From assembly GCF_964213995.1 (NCBI RefSeq), contig NC_135816.1:64356001-64420000 (forward strand): a stretch of 64,000 bases of DNA, in the 5' to 3' direction. This DNA comes from Mustelus asterias (lineage: Eukaryota). A program made the translations under genes and the position numbers. Position 1 is the first letter of the stretch; every line of letters starts with the position of its first letter. The notes under the pieces are model-generated. The model did not search any database. It was not told the origin of the DNA and saw nothing but the letters and a program-made list of their open reading frames with translations. Below are positions 12,403-32,463 of this stretch, piece by piece.

Positions 12403-15400
12403 TCAGTACCACTTACCCGCCTGATCCCCATAACCCTTAATTCCCTTACCGATCAGGAATCCATCCATCCGCGCTTTAAACATATTCAGCGAGGTAGCCT
12501 CCACCACCTCAGTGGGCAGAGAATTCCAGAGATTCACCACCCTCTGGGAGAAGGAGTTCCTCCTCAACTCTGTCTTAAACCGACCCCCCTTTATTTTGAG
12601 GCTGTGTCCTCTAGTTTTAACTTCCTTACTAAGTGGAAAGAATCTCTCCGCCTCCACCCTATCCAGCCCCCGCATTATCTTATAAGTCTCCATAAGATCC
12701 CCCCTCATCCTTCTAAACTCCAACGAGTACAAACCCAATCTCCTCAGCCTCTCCTCATAATCCAAACCCCTCATCTCCGGTATCAACCTGGTGAACCTTC
12801 TCTGCACTCCCTCCAATGCCAATATATCCTTCCTCATATAAGGGGACCAATACTGCACACAGTATTCCAGCTGCGGCCTCACCAATGCCCTGTACAGGTG
12901 CATCAAGACATCCCTGCTTTTATATTCTATCCCCATCGCAATATAGGCCAACATCCCATTTGCCTTCTTGATCACCTGTTGTACCTGCAGACTGGGCTTT
13001 TGCGTCTCATGCACAAGGACCCCCAGGTCCCTTTGCACGGTAGCATGTTTTAATTTGTTTCCATTGAGATAGTAATCCCATTTGTTATTATTTCCTCCAA
13101 AGTGTATAACCTCGCATTTCTCAACGTTATACTCCATTTGCCATATCCTCGCCCACTCACTCAGCCTGTCCAAATTTCTCTGCAGATCTTCTCCGTCCTC
13201 CACACGATTCACTTTTCCACTTATCTTTGTGTCGTCTGCAAACTTCGTTACCCTACACTCCGTCCCCTCCTCCAGATCATCTATATAAATGGTAAATAGT
13301 TGCGGCCCGAGTACCGATCCCTGCGGCACGCCACTAGTTACCTTCCTCCAACCGGAAAAACACCCATTTATTCCGACTCTTTGCTTCCTGTCGGATAGCC
13401 AGTCCCCAATCCACTTTAACACACTACCCCCAACTCCGTGTGCCCTAATCTTCTTCAGCAGCCTTTTATGGGGCACCTTATCAAACGCCTTTTGGAAATC
13501 CAAAAACACCGCATCTACCGGTTCTCCTCCATCAACCGCCCTAGTCACATCTTCATAAAAATCCAACATGTTCGTCAAGCACGACTTTCCCCTCATGAAT
13601 CCATGCTGCGTCTGATTGATCGAACCATTTCTATCCAGATGCCCTGCTATCTCCTCTTTAATAATGGATTCCAGCATTTTCCCTACTACAGACGTTAAGC
13701 TGACCGGCCTATAGTTACCCGCCTTTTGTCTCCTTCCTTTTTTAAACAGCGGCGTAACATTAGCCGTTTTCCAATCAACCGGCACTACCCCAGAATGCAA
13801 CGAGTTTTGATAAATAATCACTAACGCATCCACTATTACCTCTGACATTTCTTTCAATACCCTGGGATGCATTCCATCCGGACCTGGGGACTTATCCACC
13901 TTCAGTCCCATTAGTCTACCCAGCACTGCCTCTCTGGTAACATTAATTGTATTAAGTATTTCTCCTGCTGCCAACCCTCTATCGTTAATATTTGGCAAAC
14001 TATTTGTGTCCTCCACCGTGAAGACCGACACAAAAAACTTATTTAAAGACTCAGCCATATCCTCATTTCCCACTATTAACTCCCCCCTCTCGTCCTCCAA
14101 GGGTCCAACATTCACTCTAGCCACTCTATTCCTTTTTATATATTTATAAAAACTTTTACTATCATTTTTTATATTAGTTGCTAGCCTAGCTTCATAGTCT
14201 ATCCTTCCTTTCTTTATCGCTTTCTTAGTCTCTCTTTGTTGTTTCTTAAATTTTTCCCAATCACTTGTTTCTCCACTATTTTTGGCCACTCTGTACGCAG
14301 CTGTTTTTATTTTAATACTCTCCTTTATTTCCTTCGTTATCCACGGCTGGTTCTCCCTTTTCTTACAATCCTTGTTTTTTGCTGGAATATATTTTTGCTG
14401 AGAACTGAAAAGGATCTCCTTAAAAATCCTCCACTGTTCCTCAGCTATCCTACCTGCCAGCCTGCTCTCCCAGTCTACCTTAGCCAATTCATCCCTCATC
14501 CTATCATATTTCCCTCTGTTCAAACAGAGGACACTGGTTTGGGACCAAACTTTCTCCTCTTCCATCTGAATCAGAAATTCGACCATATTGTGGTCACTAG
14601 ACCCAAGAGGGTCCTTCACAATAAGATCCTTAATTCTACCTACCTCGTTACACAATACCAGATCCAAAATAGCTCGTTCCCTCGTCGGTTCCGTAACATG
14701 CTGTTCAAGGAAACTATCCCGACAGCATTCTAAGAACTCTTCCTCCATTCCACCCTTACCGACTTGAGTCTGCCAGTCAATGTGCATGTTGAAGTCCCCC
14801 ATGATTATTGCCGTTCCGTTTTTACACGCATCCCTTATCTGCTTGTTTATAGCCCTCCCTACCTCAACTTTATTATTTGGGGGCCTATATACCACACCTA
14901 CTAGTGTCTTTCTCCCTCTACTATTCCTCATCTCTACCCATAATGATTCCACGTTTTGTTCCTCAGAGCCTATGTCATCCCTCAGTACTACCCTGATATT
15001 ATCTCTTATTAATAGCGCGACCCCACCACCTTTTCCTTCCTGTCTATTCTTCCTAAACGCCTGATACCCCTGGATATTCATCTCCCAGTCCTGGTCACCT
15101 TTCAGCCACGTTTCTGTAATGGCCACTAGATCGTACCCACTCGTGCTGATTTGCACCATCAACTCATTTACCTTGTTCCGAATGCTTCGTGCATTCAGGC
15201 AAAGTGTCCTTATTCCAGCTTTTATCTGGACCCGCTTTGATGAGTCGCGAACACCCTCTCCCTCTACTCCCTTATCTAAATTACCGCCTTCATTCACTTG
15301 CACCCTCTCCTCTACCATTAATTTTGTAATTCCCCTTACCCCTGCATCCTCCACCCCATCAATTAGTTCCTTGATCCTAGTCAACTCTTCTAGCTCCCCT

Positions 15401-15408
15401 CCCCCCAA
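12403..15408 (-). CDS. CR1 ORF2: apurinic endonuclease plus reverse transcriptase
   Basis: APE motifs (CLNARS, ITETW, YRPP, MGDFN, SDH); RT motifs (NYRPVSLTS, QHGF, LDFQKAFDKV, GVPQGSVLGP, FADD). First in-frame ATG is at 15318. Confidence 0.97.
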   Translation of the reverse strand: MGGGELEELTRIKELIDGVEDAGVRGITKLMVEERVQVNEGGNLDKGVEGEGVRDSSKRVQIKAGIRTLCLNARSIRNKVNELMVQISTSGYDLVAITETWLKGDQDWEMNIQGYQAFRKNRQEGKGGGVALLIRDNIRVVLRDDIGSEEQNVESLWVEMRNSRGRKTLVGVVYRPPNNKVEVGRAINKQIRDACKNGTAIIMGDFNMHIDWQTQVGKGGMEEEFLECCRDSFLEQHVTEPTRERAILDLVLCNEVGRIKDLIVKDPLGSSDHNMVEFLIQMEEEKVWSQTSVLCLNRGKYDRMRDELAKVDWESRLAGRIAEEQWRIFKEILFSSQQKYIPAKNKDCKKRENQPWITKEIKESIKIKTAAYRVAKNSGETSDWEKFKKQQRETKKAIKKGRIDYEARLATNIKNDSKSFYKYIKRNRVARVNVGPLEDERGELIVGNEDMAESLNKFFVSVFTVEDTNSLPNINDRGLAAGEILNTINVTREAVLGRLMGLKVDKSPGPDGMHPRVLKEMSEVIVDALVIIYQNSLHSGVVPVDWKTANVTPLFKKGRRQKAGNYRPVSLTSVVGKMLESIIKEEIAGHLDRNGSINQTQHGFMRGKSCLTNMLDFYEDVTRAVDGGEPVDAVFLDFQKAFDKVPHKRLLKKIRAHGVGGSVLKWIGDWLSDRKQRVGINGCFSGWRKVTSGVPQGSVLGPQLFTIYIDDLEEGTECRVTKFADDTKISGKVNRVEDGEDLQRNLDRLSEWARIWQMEYNVEKCEVIHFGGNNNKWDYYLNGNKLKHATVQRDLGVLVHETQKPSLQVQQVIKKANGMLAYIAMGIEYKSRDVLMHLYRALVRPQLEYCVQYWSPYMRKDILALEGVQRRFTRLIPEMRGLDYEERLRRLGLYSLEFRRMRGDLMETYKIMRGLDRVEAERFFPLSKEVKTRGHSLKIKGGRFKTELRRNSFSQRVVNLWNSLPTEVVEATSLNMFKARMDGFLIGKGIKGYGDQAGKWY

Positions 15409-15413
15409 CCTAT

Positions 15414-16343
15414 CTAGTTTAAATTCTCCCCAGTAACCTTAGCCAACCTACCGGCCAGGATATTGGTCCCCGTGTGATTCAAGTTCCACCCGTTTTTTGT
15501 ATACAGATCACCCCTGCCCCTAAAGAGGTCCCAATGGTCCAGGAACCTGAATCCCTGCCCCCTGCACCAGTCCCTCAGCCACACATTCATCTTCCACCTC
15601 ACTCCATTCCTGCCCTCACCTTCCCGTGGCACAGGCAGTAATCCTGAGATTACTACCTTTGCTTTCCTCTTTCTCAGCTGTCTCCCTAATTCCCTGTACT
15701 CCCTTTTCATGACCCCTTCTCCCTTCCTACCCACATCAGCGGTACCAATATGTACCGCTACCTCAGGCTCCTCTCCCTCCCACCTCAGGATTTCCGGGAC
15801 GCGACTAGCGACATCCTGGATCCCGGCCCCAGGGAGGCAGACCACCATGCGAGAATCCCGCCTACCTCCGCAGAAACGCCTGTCTGTCCCCTTCACCATC
15901 GAGTCCCCGATTAATACCGCCTTCCTCCTCTTTTCCTTAGCCCTCTGAGTTACAGGGCTGGACTCCACTGCGGAGACACGGCCACTGCTGCTTCCCCCAG
16001 GCGGGCTGTCCCCCCCAGCAGTACTCAAGCAGGAGTACTTGTTGTGCAGGGGCAAATCCACTGTGGTGCTCTCAACCACCCTAGCCTTACCCTTCCTGGC
16101 CATCACCCACTTGGCCTCCTCCCGTTGCCCTGGTGTGACCACCTGATGATAGCTCTTGTCTATCACCTCCTCATTCTCCCTCATCAGCCTAAGATCCTCG
16201 AGCTGCAGTTCCAGCTCCCTAACACGGTCCCTCAGGAACTGCAGCTCGACACACCCCTCACAGATGTGGATGTCCGGGAGGCCAGATGCCTCCAGGACCT
16301 CCCACATCCTACACTGGGAACAACACACTGGTTTCACACTCAT
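15414..16343 (-). CDS. CR1 ORF1: zinc-finger/leucine-zipper plus SGNH esterase domain
   Basis: CxxC...CxxC plus coiled coil; IGDSM, CLPGA, HIGT, LN..GT esterase blocks; ATG at 16343. Confidence 0.93.
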   Translation of the reverse strand: MSVKPVCCSQCRMWEVLEASGLPDIHICEGCVELQFLRDRVRELELQLEDLRLMRENEEVIDKSYHQVVTPGQREEAKWVMARKGKARVVESTTVDLPLHNKYSCLSTAGGDSPPGGSSSGRVSAVESSPVTQRAKEKRRKAVLIGDSMVKGTDRRFCGGRRDSRMVVCLPGAGIQDVASRVPEILRWEGEEPEVAVHIGTADVGRKGEGVMKREYRELGRQLRKRKAKVVISGLLPVPREGEGRNGVRWKMNVWLRDWCRGQGFRFLDHWDLFRGRGDLYTKNGWNLNHTGTNILAGRLAKVTGENLN

Positions 16344-16673
16344 ACTGGACACTTTATGTCAAGTAAGACAGTGAAAAGTTAATAAGAGTGTAAGGAAACA
16401 AAAACTCACCCCTGCTCGTCCAAGCCCTGTGAGCCAAAGCCCTGACAGCTCACTCAACTTCCCACTCACTCTGCTGCCCGCTACGATGCTGCCCGCTGTA
16501 TACTTTGGTGCGCTTTTAAAACCTCCAAAAACTTCCCCAGGCCTCTCCTGGCCCGACTTCTGGTTTTGAAAAAAACCTCCGATTTTAAACCCAAAATTAA
16601 CTGAAAAAATAAATAATTAATTAAAGTCAGAAAACCCACTCTCTTACCCTCAGCCTGCTCCTGGGAACAAATC

Positions 16674-17253: not shown

Positions 17254-18444
17254 GATATATGTACAATTAATACGCAATCACATCACAAGTCTTTTTGGTG
17301 AATGTGATTTCGTTTTGGTAAGATACAACGTTCTGGAGTCTGATCTTTGACATCCTTGATAGCCTTTTCTTTACGAATATCAGGTATTTCATCTTATGAA
17401 GTTATTTTTTCGTTTTTAGCTTCCTGAGATGTTGGTTGTTCTACTGGAGTAGACTCTGAACTTAGGTCTGTAGTAATTCTTGGTTCAGGGATTTGGTGTC
17501 TGACATAAGCCTTTCTGATACTGTCTCTGCTCACTCACTTTTTGAAGTGGGAATTTGATCCATGTCCATCAGGTCCATTTTAGCTCGAATGGTTGCAGGT
17601 ACCCAGAGTAGCCTCTCGCTAAAACTCTTTCTCTTTGCTTAAAATGCCTCAGTTTTGATGTTTGTTAATGGCGAGTTAGTTATGCTTGTTGTTGTTGGTC
17701 TACTATTGTAGTTGTGTCAGGTGGTGTGAGTAGATCTAATTTAGTTTCCTTCTCAGGAACAACACTGCTGGTGGTATGAGCCGTGTTCCAATAGGACTTG
17801 AGAAAGTCGTTTACTCCCCCAGATAACGGACCTTCGTCTTTGGATGCTTTAATGTCATGTTTCAGTGACTGTACTAGCCTCTCCTCCAATCTGTTAGCAG
17901 ACGAATGATATGGATATGGGGTAGTCCTAATGTATACCATTGCTCTTAAGTTAACCGAAAGATTCCTGAGATGTTAACTGAGTCCCATTATCACTGACTA
18001 GTTGTTCGGGCCATCCAAATCTTGTGAGCAACTCATCCAACTCTGGTTTCTTCCGTCTTTCATTATCCTGACTTTGGGCCACTTTGCACGTCCACTTGGA
18101 CAAGAAACATGTAGCCTTCAATGGATCCTGCAAAGTCGATATGTAGCCTCTGCCAAGATTGTTTTGGCCAATCCCATGAGTGAAGTGGTTGTAGGGTGGA
18201 ATATTCTGGCACATGGCTGGTATTGTCCCACTTTTTCTTCTGTTTGTGAGTTATGTCCCGGGCACCAAAAACAGCTTTGTGTAAGCTCTTTCATTCGCAT
18301 TACCCTTGGATGATCTTTGTGCAGATGATCCAGGATTCAGCTTTGTAAACATGGATCGCCCTGATCCCTCATAGCAATCTCCATTTTGGACAGTTAATTC
18401 AAGTTCCCTCATTATGTAAAGTCTTAATTCAGGATTCTTGTTAT

Positions 18445-18783
18445 CATAGAAATCATAGAAACCCTACAGTGCAGAAGGAGGCCATTTGGCCCATCGAGTC
18501 TGCACCGACCACAATCCCACCCAGGCCCTACCCCCGCATATTTACCCGCTAATCCCGCTAACCTACGCATCTCAGGACTCTAAGGGACAATTTTTTTAAC
18601 CTGGCCAATCAACCTAACCCGCACATCTTTGGACTGTGGGAGGAAACCGGAGCACCCGGAGGAAACCCACGCAGACACGAGGAGAATGTGCAAACTCCAC
18701 ACAGACAGTGACCCGAGCCGGGAATCGAACCCGGGACCCTGGAGCTGTGAAGCAGCAGTGCTAACCACTGTGCTACCGTGCCG
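18445..18783 (-). mobile_element. Young V-SINE (HE1-like) inserted in Gypsy pol
   Basis: Full SINE on - with a TTCTATGA repeat tail; near-identical to the copy at 24727. Confidence 0.9.
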
Positions 18784-21477
18784 TTATGTTATGTTCCTCT
18801 TAAATCCATGTCTATGACCCGACCCATTACCGAGTCATTCCTTGCGTGCCTTTGTACCTGAGACAATTTTATTGGAGCATTCTCTACCTGGGAAAAGTAT
18901 ATGTTGATATTGCTGTCTTGCCTTCGGTTTTGTCTTGAAGTGATAAGCTCGATAAGGACCTGCTTTGGCATGCTGTTCTGATCTCCGAAATTGATTTCAT
19001 AATTATGCACTGATAATATCAATGCCCATGTTTTTAGATGACTTGCAGCTAATAATGGAATTCCCTGGTATGGACTAAAAATGGTTGTCAATGGCCTGTG
19101 GTTGGTCAACAAAATAACTCATCTACCATACACATACAAGTGAAATCGTTTTAATGCCAAAACTATGCAGAGCTCTTTTTTCTCAATTTCTGCATAATTT
19201 TGTTCCTGCGCTTGAGATCGTTGACGCTGTTGACCGCTCCTCCGCAGTTGCCATAATGTGAGGAGATACCACACCCACCCCATAGGGCGATGCGTCACAT
19301 GCTATTTGAATTTTCAACTCTGAGTTAAAGTGGATCAATACCTCAATTGCTTGAGCACGTCTTTAACTCCTTTGTATGCACTTTCACGCTCTTTCATCTA
19401 ATTCCATTATTGGTTAGCACACCAAGTATGATGTGGCTTTAGTAGTGTCACAAAGTTTGGGATGAACTTATTGTAATAATTGATTAGTCCTAAAAACGAT
19501 CTCAACTATGACGCATTCTGTGGTCTTGGCACATCTAGGATTGCTGTCATTTTCTTAGGTTCTTTGTGTAGGCCATCCTTGTCTATTACATGACCTAGAT
19601 AACTGATGGGAATTATTTGAAAAATTCACATTTTTTGTTCTTCATGTGGAGGTTCGACTTCTCTAGATGCTCCAGTGTTTCCTCCAAGTTTTGTAAATGT
19701 TCCTGTTCAGTTTTGATTGTGATTAGAATGTCATCCAAATAACACTGGGCATTGTTGAGGCCATATAGGATTTGGTCCATTGATTTCTGGAATATGGCCA
19801 TTGTAAGTGTTATTTTGAATGGTAATTGCTTATACAGGAACAATCCCTTGTGGATAACAATCATTAGCAGTGACTCAGTTGCCACCCTCATTTGCAGGTA
19901 TACTTGGGACAAGTCTAGCTTGTTGAACTGCTGACCACCAGATAATCCAGCGAATAGGTCTTTGATGAACGGTATAGGGTACTGGTTGACACACACTACT
20001 GGATTTATCGTCGCCTTAAAGTCCCTGCAAATTCGTACAGAACCATCAGATTTACTAATTGGGACAATTGAGGTTGCCCAATTGCTCATTGTTACAGGTT
20101 CAATCACTCCATCCTTGACTATTTTTTCTTGTTGCACTTCTATCTTCTGTCTCACTGCTTAAGGCACAATTCTTGCCTTGAAACATCTACGGTTGCTATC
20201 AGATTTGACCTTACGCTTTGCCTCCACTGCAGTCATGGATCCTAGGGAGTTCTCAACCACCTTCTCCAGAGGTTTTTGCAGCGTGTTCTTGCTGTCAACC
20301 AATTGGTTAAATGCTCCCCAGTAAAGCTTGATTTTATATGTTCTTTCAAAGAGTGCAGGAGAATTTCCCGTTACTATATGCAGAGGTAATTCTGCTGATT
20401 GACCATTAACTTCTACTTGAACCACGATATATCCCTTCAATGGAACTACCTCCTCAGTATAAATTTGCAGAATTATGTTTAAAGGTTTTAGTGATAAATG
20501 TTTAAGCTTCTGATTGTTTATACTTTCTGGGAGAAGTGGTATAGCTGCTCCTGTATCTGCTTCCATTTTTACTTCATTTCCGTCTAACTTTGGGTAAACC
20601 CAGACCTTTGCGTATCCCCTTGCATGGATAGGACACCTAGTTTCAATTCTTGGATCTTCTCCAGTCTGGTATCATCTTGGAAATTTTCATCGTCCTCAGA
20701 TACTTTGTAGACCCCTTTTGTAAATCTTGACATTTTCTTGTGTTTGCACATCTTGGAGGTTTGCAGAGTATGTTGTGTCCAACACGCCTTCATTTTGTGG
20801 CCCTTCTTGCCACAGCTTTTATGTTTATTTTCTCTGCTCTAGCATTCATGTGGCAAGTCCCCCACCTGGGCATATCTATGGCATGCTTGCATTTTAAGAG
20901 GTTTCTTTCTGTCAGTTTCCATCTTATATGGTTTGGTTCCAGCTCCAATTTGAGAAGCTCCTTTTGCGGCCAATTCCATGGATACCATGAATACAATAGC
21001 AAGTTTTAGTGTTAAAGCAGTTTCAGTGAGCAATTGTCTTTGAATTGCTTCATTTCAAAGCCCACAAAAAGCCTGTCTGACAGTCAAGCCAGCCGAGGGT
21101 CAAGCCAAACTCTCAATTTATTGCCAGCCGCCTTAATGTTGCTACAAATTGTGATATATTTTTGTCCTCTTGGCTCCATTGATAGAATCTGAAGCTCTCA
21201 GCAATTGTTAGTGGTTTAGGCTTCTTGGGATGAATAGGCTCTGAAGCAAAGCAAAGGTTTTCCACCTTACAGTGCTAAGGAAAGCGACTACTTTAAGTTC
21301 ATCCAGTATCCTATTTGCTGCAAGATAACATTCAAATCTCTCTTCTTAAGCAGTCCATTTTCCACATTTTCTCAAACACTTCCATGGCCCCGCCATTGCA
21401 GTACTGATTCTTAGGTTGTAGTACTTATTTAACCTTTTCTTCCCTTTTTTTTACTCTTAGAAATTTAACTTGTATTA

Positions 21478-22432: not shown

Positions 22433-22573
22433 GGCAACGAAATTGAGGAACGCAGCCGGGTGGTCCACATCAGCAACTTGCCTTCTGTTGGCTACACTGA
22501 TTCAGAAATTGTATGCCTTGGTATACCCTTTGGAAAAGTGACCAACTACCTACTGATGAGAGTTAAGAATCAG
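22433..22573 (+). CDS. MATR3: Matrin-3-like exon, RRM2 first half (GNEIEERSRVVHISNLPSVGYTDSE...PFGKVTNYLLMRVKNQ)
   Basis: gtttag / gtgctg; 141 nt, phase 0; matches MATR3 RVIHLSNLPHSGYSDS...NYILMRMKSQ. Confidence 0.92.
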
Positions 22574-22816
22574 GTGCTGTGGAATTCAAAATGTCAGCAA
22601 TAATGTGAAATATTTTATGACTGAGTAATAAAAGGAATTGAGTTAATTGGACCATATATTACTGTTCTGCTAGTGAGGAATGTTTTTTTAAAAATAATAG
22701 CCGCCAAATATATACTGGAGTGTGACTTGTTGGCATTTCAATGGTTGCAAGATTTTAATACTGTATGTTCCAAAGGATTCAGGACTCGCCTTGTTCAAGC
22801 TATTTAAAGAGTGTGT

Positions 22817-23132
22817 CAACCTTTTGGCTAAGATCAAGTGTGGTCTGCTAATGCTGCACTTGGTTGAGGTCATTGGGTTGCATTTAAGCTTCATTTTCAT
22901 ATGAAGCAATTTTTAAAAGCGGCATCTCGGCCTTTTGGCTAAGATGCAAATGAGATCAAGCTTTGGAGGCGGAGACGTCCTCGTACTCCAATCAGCTTGG
23001 CTCATGTAGATCAGGCCCAAGACAGGGTAAAGGGTTGCATACCCTGTCTTGTCAGCATGGATCGGAAATGTCTCAACTTGTTGAGACTCTGAATTGGACT
23101 TGATTTGATTGAATTGGAAAAGTATAGAAAAA
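22817..23132 (+). mobile_element. U2-snRNA-derived retroposed element (SINEU-like or chimeric retrocopy)
   Basis: Two U2 5'-end segments (22820-22841 and 22925-22945), A-rich tail, 11-bp TSD AAAGAGTGTGT (22806-22816 and 23133-23143). Confidence 0.8.
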
Positions 23133-24530
23133 AAAGAGTGTGTTGCAAGTTCCTTGATTTTGCTTCTTTATCCTGTTAGGATTTGACAGTTGTAATCATT
23201 CAAATAGAATTAACATTTATTTTAACTTAGCATTTGTTTGGTTATTTGGTTCTAAAACTGAGTGTGTTTTAAGGGGGGGAGAAACTTCCATTGTTTAGTG
23301 GAATTCTGACTTTTGCAATAGGGAATTCTGTCCTTTTATATTTTTCTGACTTCTGTCTCCCAACACCAGGAGGGGAGAGCTTCAGAAATCCCAGTTCACT
23401 GCAGGTCATGAAAAAAGTACGAAAATTACATGATTCCATGTCATGAATTTTCAGACCTTTTTGTCATTGGCTACTCTCATCCTTGTGGTTAGTGGAAAGA
23501 TTTTAATACATAACTTGTTTTTAGTGCAATTTGCTACAATCTTAAGTAGCACACAATTTTTTTAATTTCTGGGGAATGAGCAATGCTGGCAAGGCTGACA
23601 TTTACCATCTGTTCATTGCCTTTGAAGGTGATGATGGTCTCCTTGAACTGCCGCAGTCCATTTCATGAAGGTGCCCCACAATGCTGTTGGGTAGAAATTA
23701 TGTCTTAGTGACAATAAAGAGGCAACTAAGTATATCCAGGTCAGGATAGACATGGAGGAGATGTTGAAGGTGATCGTGATATCATGCACCAGTACTGTAA
23801 ATGGGAAGTGCTCCATCCAACCATTCCCCTCTCCTTTTACTTTTGAGTCATGGGCAGTTGATTCATTCAGCTGCACTAGCTGTTGCTTCACTGATCCAAG
23901 TTTTGAATTAATTATTGGCTACAGTAATATCTGCAAATATTAAGATAAAATATTGACATCACGACATGAGCAGAAAAATGAGATGGGTGGGAGTAAAGGT
24001 ATATATGAATAGTTAGGTAAAAATAGATGGTCAACTATGAAGATGACCTATATTGGTGCGGTTGTGACATCAGTGCTGTTCTAAAAGTGGAAACAATAAA
24101 AATAATAAGAAGGCAGAGTAACTGAGTCATGCATTTTATAATGTTGAATGATGAAACTCGTGTAAAAGCAGAAGCATTTTAAGTGAGGTGGGAATTACTT
24201 GTTTCTCACATTATAGAAGGATATTAGGGATGATGCTTTGTTAGATTTAAGGGATTATTCAGAATTGATAGTAAATATTTGAATTGTTTCTAAGGATCGT
24301 AGTATCATTAGATATATAGCAATAAACCTGCTTAATATGAAGGCTCTGAACTAACACAATGAGAGAAAGGAATGTCTGCTGCCCAAATATATATTTTCTT
24401 GGAAAGATGGTGTTAATGTTATTTTTCCTGGTAAGATTCCTGGCCATTCCTAATTATAAGTGAACTTCTTTCAAAGATTGATTATATGGCTGCGTATAGT
24501 CTATTTCTGCTGTGGTGCTGAACCTACTGG

Positions 24531-25148
24531 AGGGGTGGCACAATGGTTAGCACTGCTGCCTCACAGGGCCAGGGACCCTGGTTCGATTCCGGCCTTGGGT
24601 GACTGTGTGGAGTTTTCACATTATTCCCGTGTCTGCGTGGGTTTACTCCCACAATCCAAGGATGTGCAGGTTAGGTGGATTAGCTGTGCTCTGTGCACGG
24701 GGTTACAGGGATAGGGAGGATGAGAGGGGCGGCACGGTAGCACAGTGGTTAGCACTGCTGCTTCACAGCTCCAGGGACCTGGGTTCAATTCCTGGCTTGG
24801 GTCACTGTCTGTGTGGAGTTTGCACATTCTCCTCGTGTCTGCGTGGGTTTCCTCCGGGTGCTCCGGTTTCCTCCCACAGTCCAAAGATGTGCGGGTTAGG
24901 TTGATTGGCCATGCTAAAATTGCCCTTAGTGTCCTGAGATGCATAGGTTAGAGGGATTAGTGGGTAAATATATGGGGGTAGGGCCTGGGTGGGATTGTGG
25001 TCGGTGCAGACTCGATGGGCCGAATGACCTCTTTCTGTGCTGTAGGGATTCTAAGAAGATTCTAAGAGTGCCTTGGTAATGCCCTTTCGGATAGTCAATG
25101 CAGACTCAATGCGCCGAAAGGCCTCTTTCTGCACGGTTGGGATTGTTT
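24531..25148 (+). mobile_element. Older V-SINE (24531-24726 plus 25067-25148) with a younger V-SINE nested inside (24727-25066)
   Basis: Two SINE heads in tandem followed by two SINE tails. Confidence 0.85.
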
Positions 25149-25203: not shown

Positions 25204-25335
25204 GTTTTCCTGGAAATGGAAACACACCAAATAGCAATGGCCATGATTGAGAAGTTCAAGAAAATACCCCTTATGTTCCATGGCAGAGAGCTGAAAGTAT
25301 ATTTGTCTCAAAAATATAAAAATCTAGTATTGAGG
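25204..25335 (+). CDS. MATR3: Matrin-3-like exon, RRM2 second half (VFLEMETHQIAMAMIE...LSQKYKNLVLR)
   Basis: ctacag / gtaagt; 132 nt, phase 0; matches AFIEMETREDAMAMV...LSEKYKKLVLR. Confidence 0.93.
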
Positions 25336-32138: not shown

Positions 32139-32463
32139 TCATAGAATCATAGAATGCTACAGTGCAGAAAGAGGCCATTCGGCCCATCGAGTCTGCACCA
32201 ACCACAATCTCACCCAGGCCCTATCCACATATCCCTACATATTTACCCACTAACCCCTCTAACCTATGCATCCCGGGACACTAAGGGGCAATTTAGAATG
32301 GCCAATCAACCTAGCCTGCACATCTTTGGACTGTGGGAGGAAACCCACGCAGACACAGGGAGAATGTGCAAACTCCACACAGACAGCGACCCGAGCCGGA
32401 TTCGAACCAGGAACCTGAAGCTGTGAAGCAGCAGTGCTAACCACTGTGCTACCGTGCCGCCCA
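32139..32463 (-). mobile_element. V-SINE (HE1-like)
   Basis: Homology to the other copies; TTCTATGA tail. Confidence 0.9.

Follow-up and report, generated by a model that had tools for sequence, protein, structure and literature searches.

A U2-headed family of short retroposons in a shark genome, likely driven by a Keno-type Tx1 LINE and probably launched from within U2 genes

How can a short retroposon multiply when its head is taken from U2, a gene with no internal promoter? For this very reason the transcription of snRNA-headed SINEs is an open question, left so in the passages of Kojima (2015, PMC4494074) that deal with it, and it is raised again by an insert at positions 22806..23143 of the window, by which we mean the whole 64,000-nucleotide stretch of Mustelus asterias DNA analyzed here. 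A first-pass annotation had read the insert as a duplication-flanked retroposon with two copies of the U2 5' end. Its boundaries hold: an exact 11-bp target-site duplication (TSD; 22806-22816 and 23133-23143), the 3' copy preceded by an A-rich tail. Both U2 pieces are borne out by comparison with the U2 gene of the same genome and are longer than first read, 22820-22844 corresponding to U2 nt 13-37 (24/25 identical) and 22922-22945 to nt 4-27 (23/24 identical); in a BLAST comparison of the insert with U2 just two short U2 pieces align. All four stems named in the annotation are present in the predicted fold of the insert (-122.3 kcal/mol, z -6.35), whose stability was equaled in 0 of 100 shuffles. 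The features are as follows.

22433..22575, + strand: host exon upstream, matrin-3-like RRM; the following exon begins near 25204
22806..22816, + strand: 5' target-site duplication, 11 bp; single copy in the empty site of organism J
22817..22819, + strand: three extra bases at the 5' junction of the truncated copy
22820..22844, + strand: U2-derived head, U2 nt 13-37; nt 1-12 are missing here and kept in full-length copies
22854..22880, + strand: arm with predicted pairing to the U2 head, U2 nt 25-36 among the paired bases
22888..22907, + strand: small hairpin (predicted fold)
22908..22914, + strand: putative Sm-site-like A/U run lacking the GG that follows in U2; weak homology
22922..22946, + strand: second U2 piece, nt 4-27, its own stem-loop (U2 comparison and fold)
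22944..22951, + strand: perfect octamer motif, as upstream of one U1 gene type in this genome
22952..23005, + strand: hairpin with a fast-changing loop; weakly collinear with the 3' part of U2
23011..23087, + strand: 3' stems, 12 bp (23018-23029/23040-23051) and 8 bp (23070-23077/23080-23087)
23088..23132, + strand: family-conserved 3' end and A tail
23133..23143, + strand: 3' target-site duplication

The placement of the insert in sense orientation in a matrin-3-like intron, about 2.6 kb long, was also confirmed. All 12 matches of the upstream RRM exon come from sharks, rays and chimaeras, and most of these proteins carry the name matrin-3-like (one is unnamed); the best, a Mustelus matrin-3-like protein, is 100% identical over 47 amino acids, and among solved structures the exon is closest to Matrin 3. 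These matches place the insert in a shark host and in sense within the intron. The empty orthologous site that the annotation had proposed to look for was found in a relative, organism J, where one contig (depth 3.9) joins 22816 to 23149 and holds a single copy of the 11-bp target sequence. The insert belongs to a family of U2-headed SINEs and is one of its young copies.

This family is non-autonomous and multi-copy, which excludes the single chimeric copy that the annotation had named as its refuting case. A genome search gave at least 5,022 copies, a lower bound that counts exact matches to one 23-nt 3' motif, and 0 for the control. Searching with the whole element returned 1,974 first-look candidates, and the best 40 scored places are 95-100% identical. 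The copies fall into many successive subfamilies, which differ mostly in loops; 13 of 97 unbiased copies are nearest to the type of the window copy, and 15 of the 97 lie in tandem, directly behind another copy. TSDs with a median length of 15 bp were found for 45 of 131 copies and for 0 of 393 mismatched controls, these 45 being what an incomplete TSD finder recovers. The family is present in all four runs examined (organisms J, A, I and B). Two runs presumed to be RNA contain family contigs, of a kind that can reveal neither a start nor an independent transcript.

Copy 5' ends pile up at the start of U2, as 24 of the 97 unbiased copies begin at nt 1-2, and 72 begin no later than nt 20. Full-length copies begin at U2 nt 1 and carry nt 1-37/39 as their head; the window copy is thus U2-headed, as proposed, but 5'-truncated rather than full-length. 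The junction between head and body is constant within each subfamily, and the young head has a substitution of its own. Upstream flanks are unrelated among 22 copies that start at nt 1, except in tandem pairs with a common TSD. The label "dimeric" proved overstated: there is no second monomer, the other U2 piece being a 24-nt stem-loop within the element. At one locus (L177:1501-2570) three SINE copies of different subfamilies lie inside one TSD pair with no internal TSDs, which suggests template jumps within one reverse-transcription event.

Representatives of six subfamilies have fold z scores of -3.1 to -10.5, and in their predicted structures U2 nt 25-36 pair with the downstream arm at a probability of 0.76-1.0. 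The U6-pairing and branch-site region is retained, as the annotation had it, but is predicted to be paired shut by the internal arm, and this pairing may hide the U2 head from the spliceosome. An origin of the arm from the U2 head by inverted duplication was assessed in 4 copies (p 0.02-0.46), and we do not claim this as shown. Stems are conserved and loops change: 12 of 131 paired columns are variable, versus 56 of 138 unpaired ones. Changes in stems are mostly one-sided, of the G-U kind, and the proposed check for covariation came out negative, since two-sided covariation (1 of 67 pairs) was no better than in shuffles (59 of 500). All 12 shared stem changes keep pairing, versus 12 of 44 single changes, in a structure derived from the same alignment.

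As to the origin of the body, Rfam gave no RNA family above cut-off, the U2 match reaching 21 bits against a cut-off of 46. We rejected a simple U2 pseudogene, as the element is not collinear with U2 as a whole (21 bits, two short BLAST pieces), and a Pol III SINE with a tRNA, 7SL or 5S head, given the weak U2 match as the sole Rfam result and T runs inside the element. With the second U2 piece excised, parts of the body are weakly collinear with nt 40-186 of a second U2 gene type, type B (p 0.002-0.10 in 5 copies; against type A, p 0.005-0.21). Comparison of the tail with LINE 3' ends, another check proposed in the annotation, did not give a significant match (p 0.016-0.11 against one LINE end and p 0.09-0.51 over 40 ends), and the window's own LINEs as a source of the tail yielded no match in the window beyond one of 19 nt. 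Considered as an internally deleted LINE (SIDE type), the SINE has the head in common with its partner LINE described below, no match to the LINE 5' UTR and the same non-significant 3' match. Judged from sequence comparison, the body may stem from a copy of U2 that diverged and took its end from a LINE.

Among other elements in the window, a near-intact LINE at 12403-16358 (minus strand) has an esterase-type ORF1 and a 1,010-aa ORF2, and we take it to belong to the CR1/L2 group from its domain layout. Broken protease-like and RT-like frames at 19613-20671 (minus strand) resemble, by translation only, the pol of an LTR retrotransposon. A 350-bp repeat has many copies in the window, including 18435-18783, 24727-25056 and 32141-32462.

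Conserved stems with variable loops, together with the weak collinearity of the body with type-B U2 nt 40-186, would be expected if the source were a diverged paralogue of U2, a host gene for a small RNA with its own function, and the dispersed copies its retro-pseudogenes. We regard this as very improbable, given the many successive subfamilies, the Sm-like site without GG and the A tail present on every promoter-linked copy (see below) whose 3' end was read.

The annotation had attributed mobilization to an L1/Tx1-type enzyme rather than to CR1. A Tx1-clade enzyme, not CR1, is favored by the evidence and narrows to a likely Keno-type LINE; the L1-type target falls, and the L1-like TTT/AAAG site of the window copy is not the rule in the family, TT|AAAA being found at 0 of 37 non-tandem sites. 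An 8-kb U2 repeat unit on C24 holds a decayed LINE whose ORF1 has a zinc knuckle and whose ORF2 is laid out as APE-RT-zinc finger (domains: APE endonuclease, RT, zf-RVT and, in ORF1, CCHC). It has its own U2 head, with U2 nt 13-58 in front, and behind its tail comes U2 from nt 39 on. According to section 6 of PMC4640811, Utopia inserts at U2 nt 39, and Keno, which encodes an APE endonuclease, shares its 3' flank; we therefore call the LINE found here Keno-type. Its protein matches include a named TX1 protein and, among the 120 listed, no named Keno. The genome holds at least 286 3' ends of this LINE, of which 23 are at the U2 site and 15 of those in one amplified unit. One copy (L238) has an open ORF2 frame of 1,144 codons, and none with both ORFs intact was found in the 8 stretches screened for ORFs.

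The amplified unit (C24:44.81-44.94 Mb; L051, L052) is 8,035 bp long, consists of one U2 gene and the dead Keno-type LINE, and occurs about 16 times beside an ordinary 1.83-kb U2 array. In the L052 unit the LINE is interrupted by the same 350-bp repeat that is frequent in the window.

The SINE uses the site of this LINE. At five loci U2 sequence resumes at nt 39 right after a SINE tail, in six cases altogether (control 0; chance estimate approximately 0.008); out of about 5,000 copies, only these 6 are at the exact site. At 3 of 30 sampled LINE ends, and likewise at L026, a SINE is adjacent and has a common TSD with the LINE. TSD lengths are 15 bp for the SINE versus 14 bp for the LINE, one partner-LINE insertion having a TSD of 20 bp. 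Dispersed SINE sites show AGY|A in 10 of 30 cases versus a background of 5.5% (p 2.6e-6), a motif that was spotted prior to testing and that recurs at 3 of 15 sites in loci fetched later (p 0.046); LINE sites show it in 3 of 10 cases. This preference fits the U2 site. Taken together, the Keno-type Tx1 LINE likely drives the SINE family in trans. The non-significant tail match to its 3' end would agree with mobilization by another LINE, either L1 or a different Tx1 family, with the sharing of the Keno-type site as a secondary matter. This is the least probable of the readings we weighed, being at odds with the identical U2 nt 39 junctions, the stacks with a common TSD and the similar TSD lengths of the two elements, and, in the case of L1, with the complete lack of TT|AAAA among the 37 sites.

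If the enzyme is supplied in trans, the promoter is still to be accounted for. The type-B U2 genes lie in 448-bp units, and their upstream motif was found at 15 places, where it leads into a U2 head with the SINE in 7, a U2 head with the LINE in 4 and an intact U2 in 4. One SINE, internally damaged, lies behind a type-A upstream region where the main U2 array ends. At least eight SINE copies thus lie directly behind the upstream region of a U2 gene, and an A tail is present wherever the 3' end of such a copy was read. In addition, three dispersed TSD-flanked copies (L090, L092 and L177) carry 36-153 nt of U2 upstream DNA (93, 36 and 153 nt, respectively); that in L177 is of the young type, as in the window, and stands behind 153 nt of type-B spacer (30 spacer matches). 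Their TSDs, read by eye as 16, 13 and 10 bp, enclose the upstream DNA, which means that an RNA spanning both U2 upstream DNA and SINE was reverse-transcribed. This arrangement shows that array-embedded copies have been transcribed by read-through starting before +1. Initiation at U2 +1 itself we infer from the pile-up of copy 5' ends. For the window's subfamily no copy was found in an intact U2 array, L177 being itself a retrocopy.

A short motif near -48 is common to both U2 types and U1; we take it to be the PSE, in type-B genes by positional resemblance only. One U1 type has an octamer near -197, and none was found within 330 nt upstream of either U2 type. The octamer at 22944-22951 inside the SINE is nearly invariant across subfamilies, and the U2 upstream regions are without one; a role as enhancer in source copies is conceivable. 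Two further loci bear U2 upstream DNA. L175 (C7:56.56 Mb) is a TSD-flanked retrocopy in which a U2 upstream region and U2 nt 1-39 are joined to just the final 270 nt of the LINE; by its composition it is laid out as a new-born U2-headed SINE would be. L187 (C11:94.37 Mb) has an older U2 upstream allele, a head and a short pairing arm followed by unrelated sequence, and is possibly an early or broken form.

Thus, we consider it probable that the window holds a 5'-truncated young copy of a SINE that a Keno-type Tx1 LINE moves in trans from source copies inside U2 genes. The LINE enzyme would occasionally insert the SINE before U2 nt 39, giving a gene whose 5' end is now the SINE head, with the U2 promoter immediately upstream of it. 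Pol II would then make an RNA from U2 +1 through the body and the A tail. This RNA would form long stems in which the internal arm pairs with the U2 head, and would sometimes be edited from A to I; the LINE protein would prime on its A tract at U2 or at loosely U2-like sites. Dispersed copies such as the one in the window would be promoter-less dead ends. A borrowed U2 promoter and a LINE enzyme together would explain how elements without a promoter multiply.

Signs of editing come from 105 copies, in which sense-strand A>G changes number 117 versus 55 T>C, and G>A and C>T 100 each; without two hypermutated copies A>G is 89 versus 55 T>C. In each of three copies, 13-18 A>G changes extend over both the head and the body, from which it follows that the head was on the same RNA. 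The hypermutated sense-strand copies are L007:1135-1469, L061:1227-1546 and L086:936-1271. Helices show no enrichment of edited sites (p 0.30). Given the specificity of ADAR, the pattern suggests editing by this enzyme before reverse transcription as the simplest reading. A biased reverse transcriptase could explain the mild A>G excess, hardly the clusters.

The same family and LINE would also be compatible with a different supply of RNA, namely read-through from host genes, tandem stacks or upstream array units, with the U2 head renewed by template switching onto U2 snRNA and copies in U2 genes being by-products of the LINE's preference. For SINEU, such template switching is the model given in the relevant passages of Kojima (PMC4494074). 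Extra U2 pieces in front of L030, L090 and L092 (nt 8-47, 12-47 and 6-48) speak for it, the copies bearing upstream DNA would be its read-through products, and the tandem copies (15 of 97) and the sense orientation of the window copy in an intron agree with it. Renewal of the head is harder to reconcile with a junction that is constant per subfamily, a young head with its own substitution and A>G changes running through head and body of single copies; nor does read-through account well for the 22 copies that start at nt 1 with unrelated flanks, tandem pairs with a common TSD excepted. On balance we hold this alternative to be unlikely and prefer source copies inside U2 genes. Beyond that preferred cycle we offer, more tentatively, the idea that shark U2 arrays serve as a nursery and engine, in which short cDNAs are deposited behind U2 nt 38 by a LINE that targets U2, and the inserts become capped retroposons driven by the snRNA promoter, L175 being a recent example. 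The fold of the successful family would hide the branch-site region, and the Sm site would have been lost to avoid the spliceosome, at the cost of ADAR editing.

By naming candidate source loci, a promoter and an enzyme, the family makes the question of SINE transcription directly testable. It also extends the snRNA-headed kind of SINE from crocodilians to sharks, within the literature searched. Young insertions are presence/absence markers for shark phylogeny, and genomic DNA may record A-to-I editing of retroposon RNA. The literature search, which covered PMC13174262 and PMC7245038 by keyword, gave no edited SINE retrocopies and no U2-headed shark SINE, a family that Repbase, Dfam or supplements could hold.

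Other short retroposons of cartilaginous fishes, SacSINE1 and CmiSINE, differ from the shark U2 SINE in having tRNA heads and L2-type tails, and the passages describing them (PMC5499810) do not mention snRNA. The R2 and R2/R1 SIDEs of Drosophila, as portrayed in the pertinent parts of PMC3414825, offer a parallel, that of a non-autonomous element sitting in a multicopy RNA gene, relying on its transcription and using a site-specific LINE in trans. In contrast to the shark family, SIDEs are LINE deletion products that a ribozyme frees from the rRNA co-transcript, whereas here the U2 start would supply the 5' end and there are thousands of copies genome-wide. The partner LINE combines an APE endonuclease with insertion before U2 nt 39, as Keno does, and has U2 nt 39 onward as its 3' flank, like the Keno and Utopia elements of PMC4640811 (section 6). 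Those are autonomous LINEs, whereas the SINE is no clear deletion product of its partner, and most copies of the LINE here lie scattered away from U2 (23 of at least 286 3' ends are at U2). The nearest relatives in kind are SINEU-1, -2 and -3, which the corresponding passages of PMC4494074 describe with Tx1-Mar from crocodilians only, with Mariner-N4 as a preferred target. Both have a U2-derived head, an internal second snRNA piece, a length below 500 bp and an A tail; tandem insertions around one TSD and repeated 5' addition of snRNA pieces; internal oligo-T and no internal promoter; and a Tx1 partner with an snRNA head. The shark family differs from SINEU (PMC4494074) in its host, in having the U2 gene as a specific target, in its copies behind U2 upstream regions and in a body that forms a long predicted duplex with signs of editing. 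With a U2 head, a length under 500 bp, an A tail, many copies of one structure that are not a sum of chimeras, repeated 5' snRNA addition (L030, L090, L092) and a Tx1-clade partner with a common target, the family belongs to the snRNA-headed kind; we do not place it, with its shark host, among the crocodilian SINEU-1, -2 and -3.
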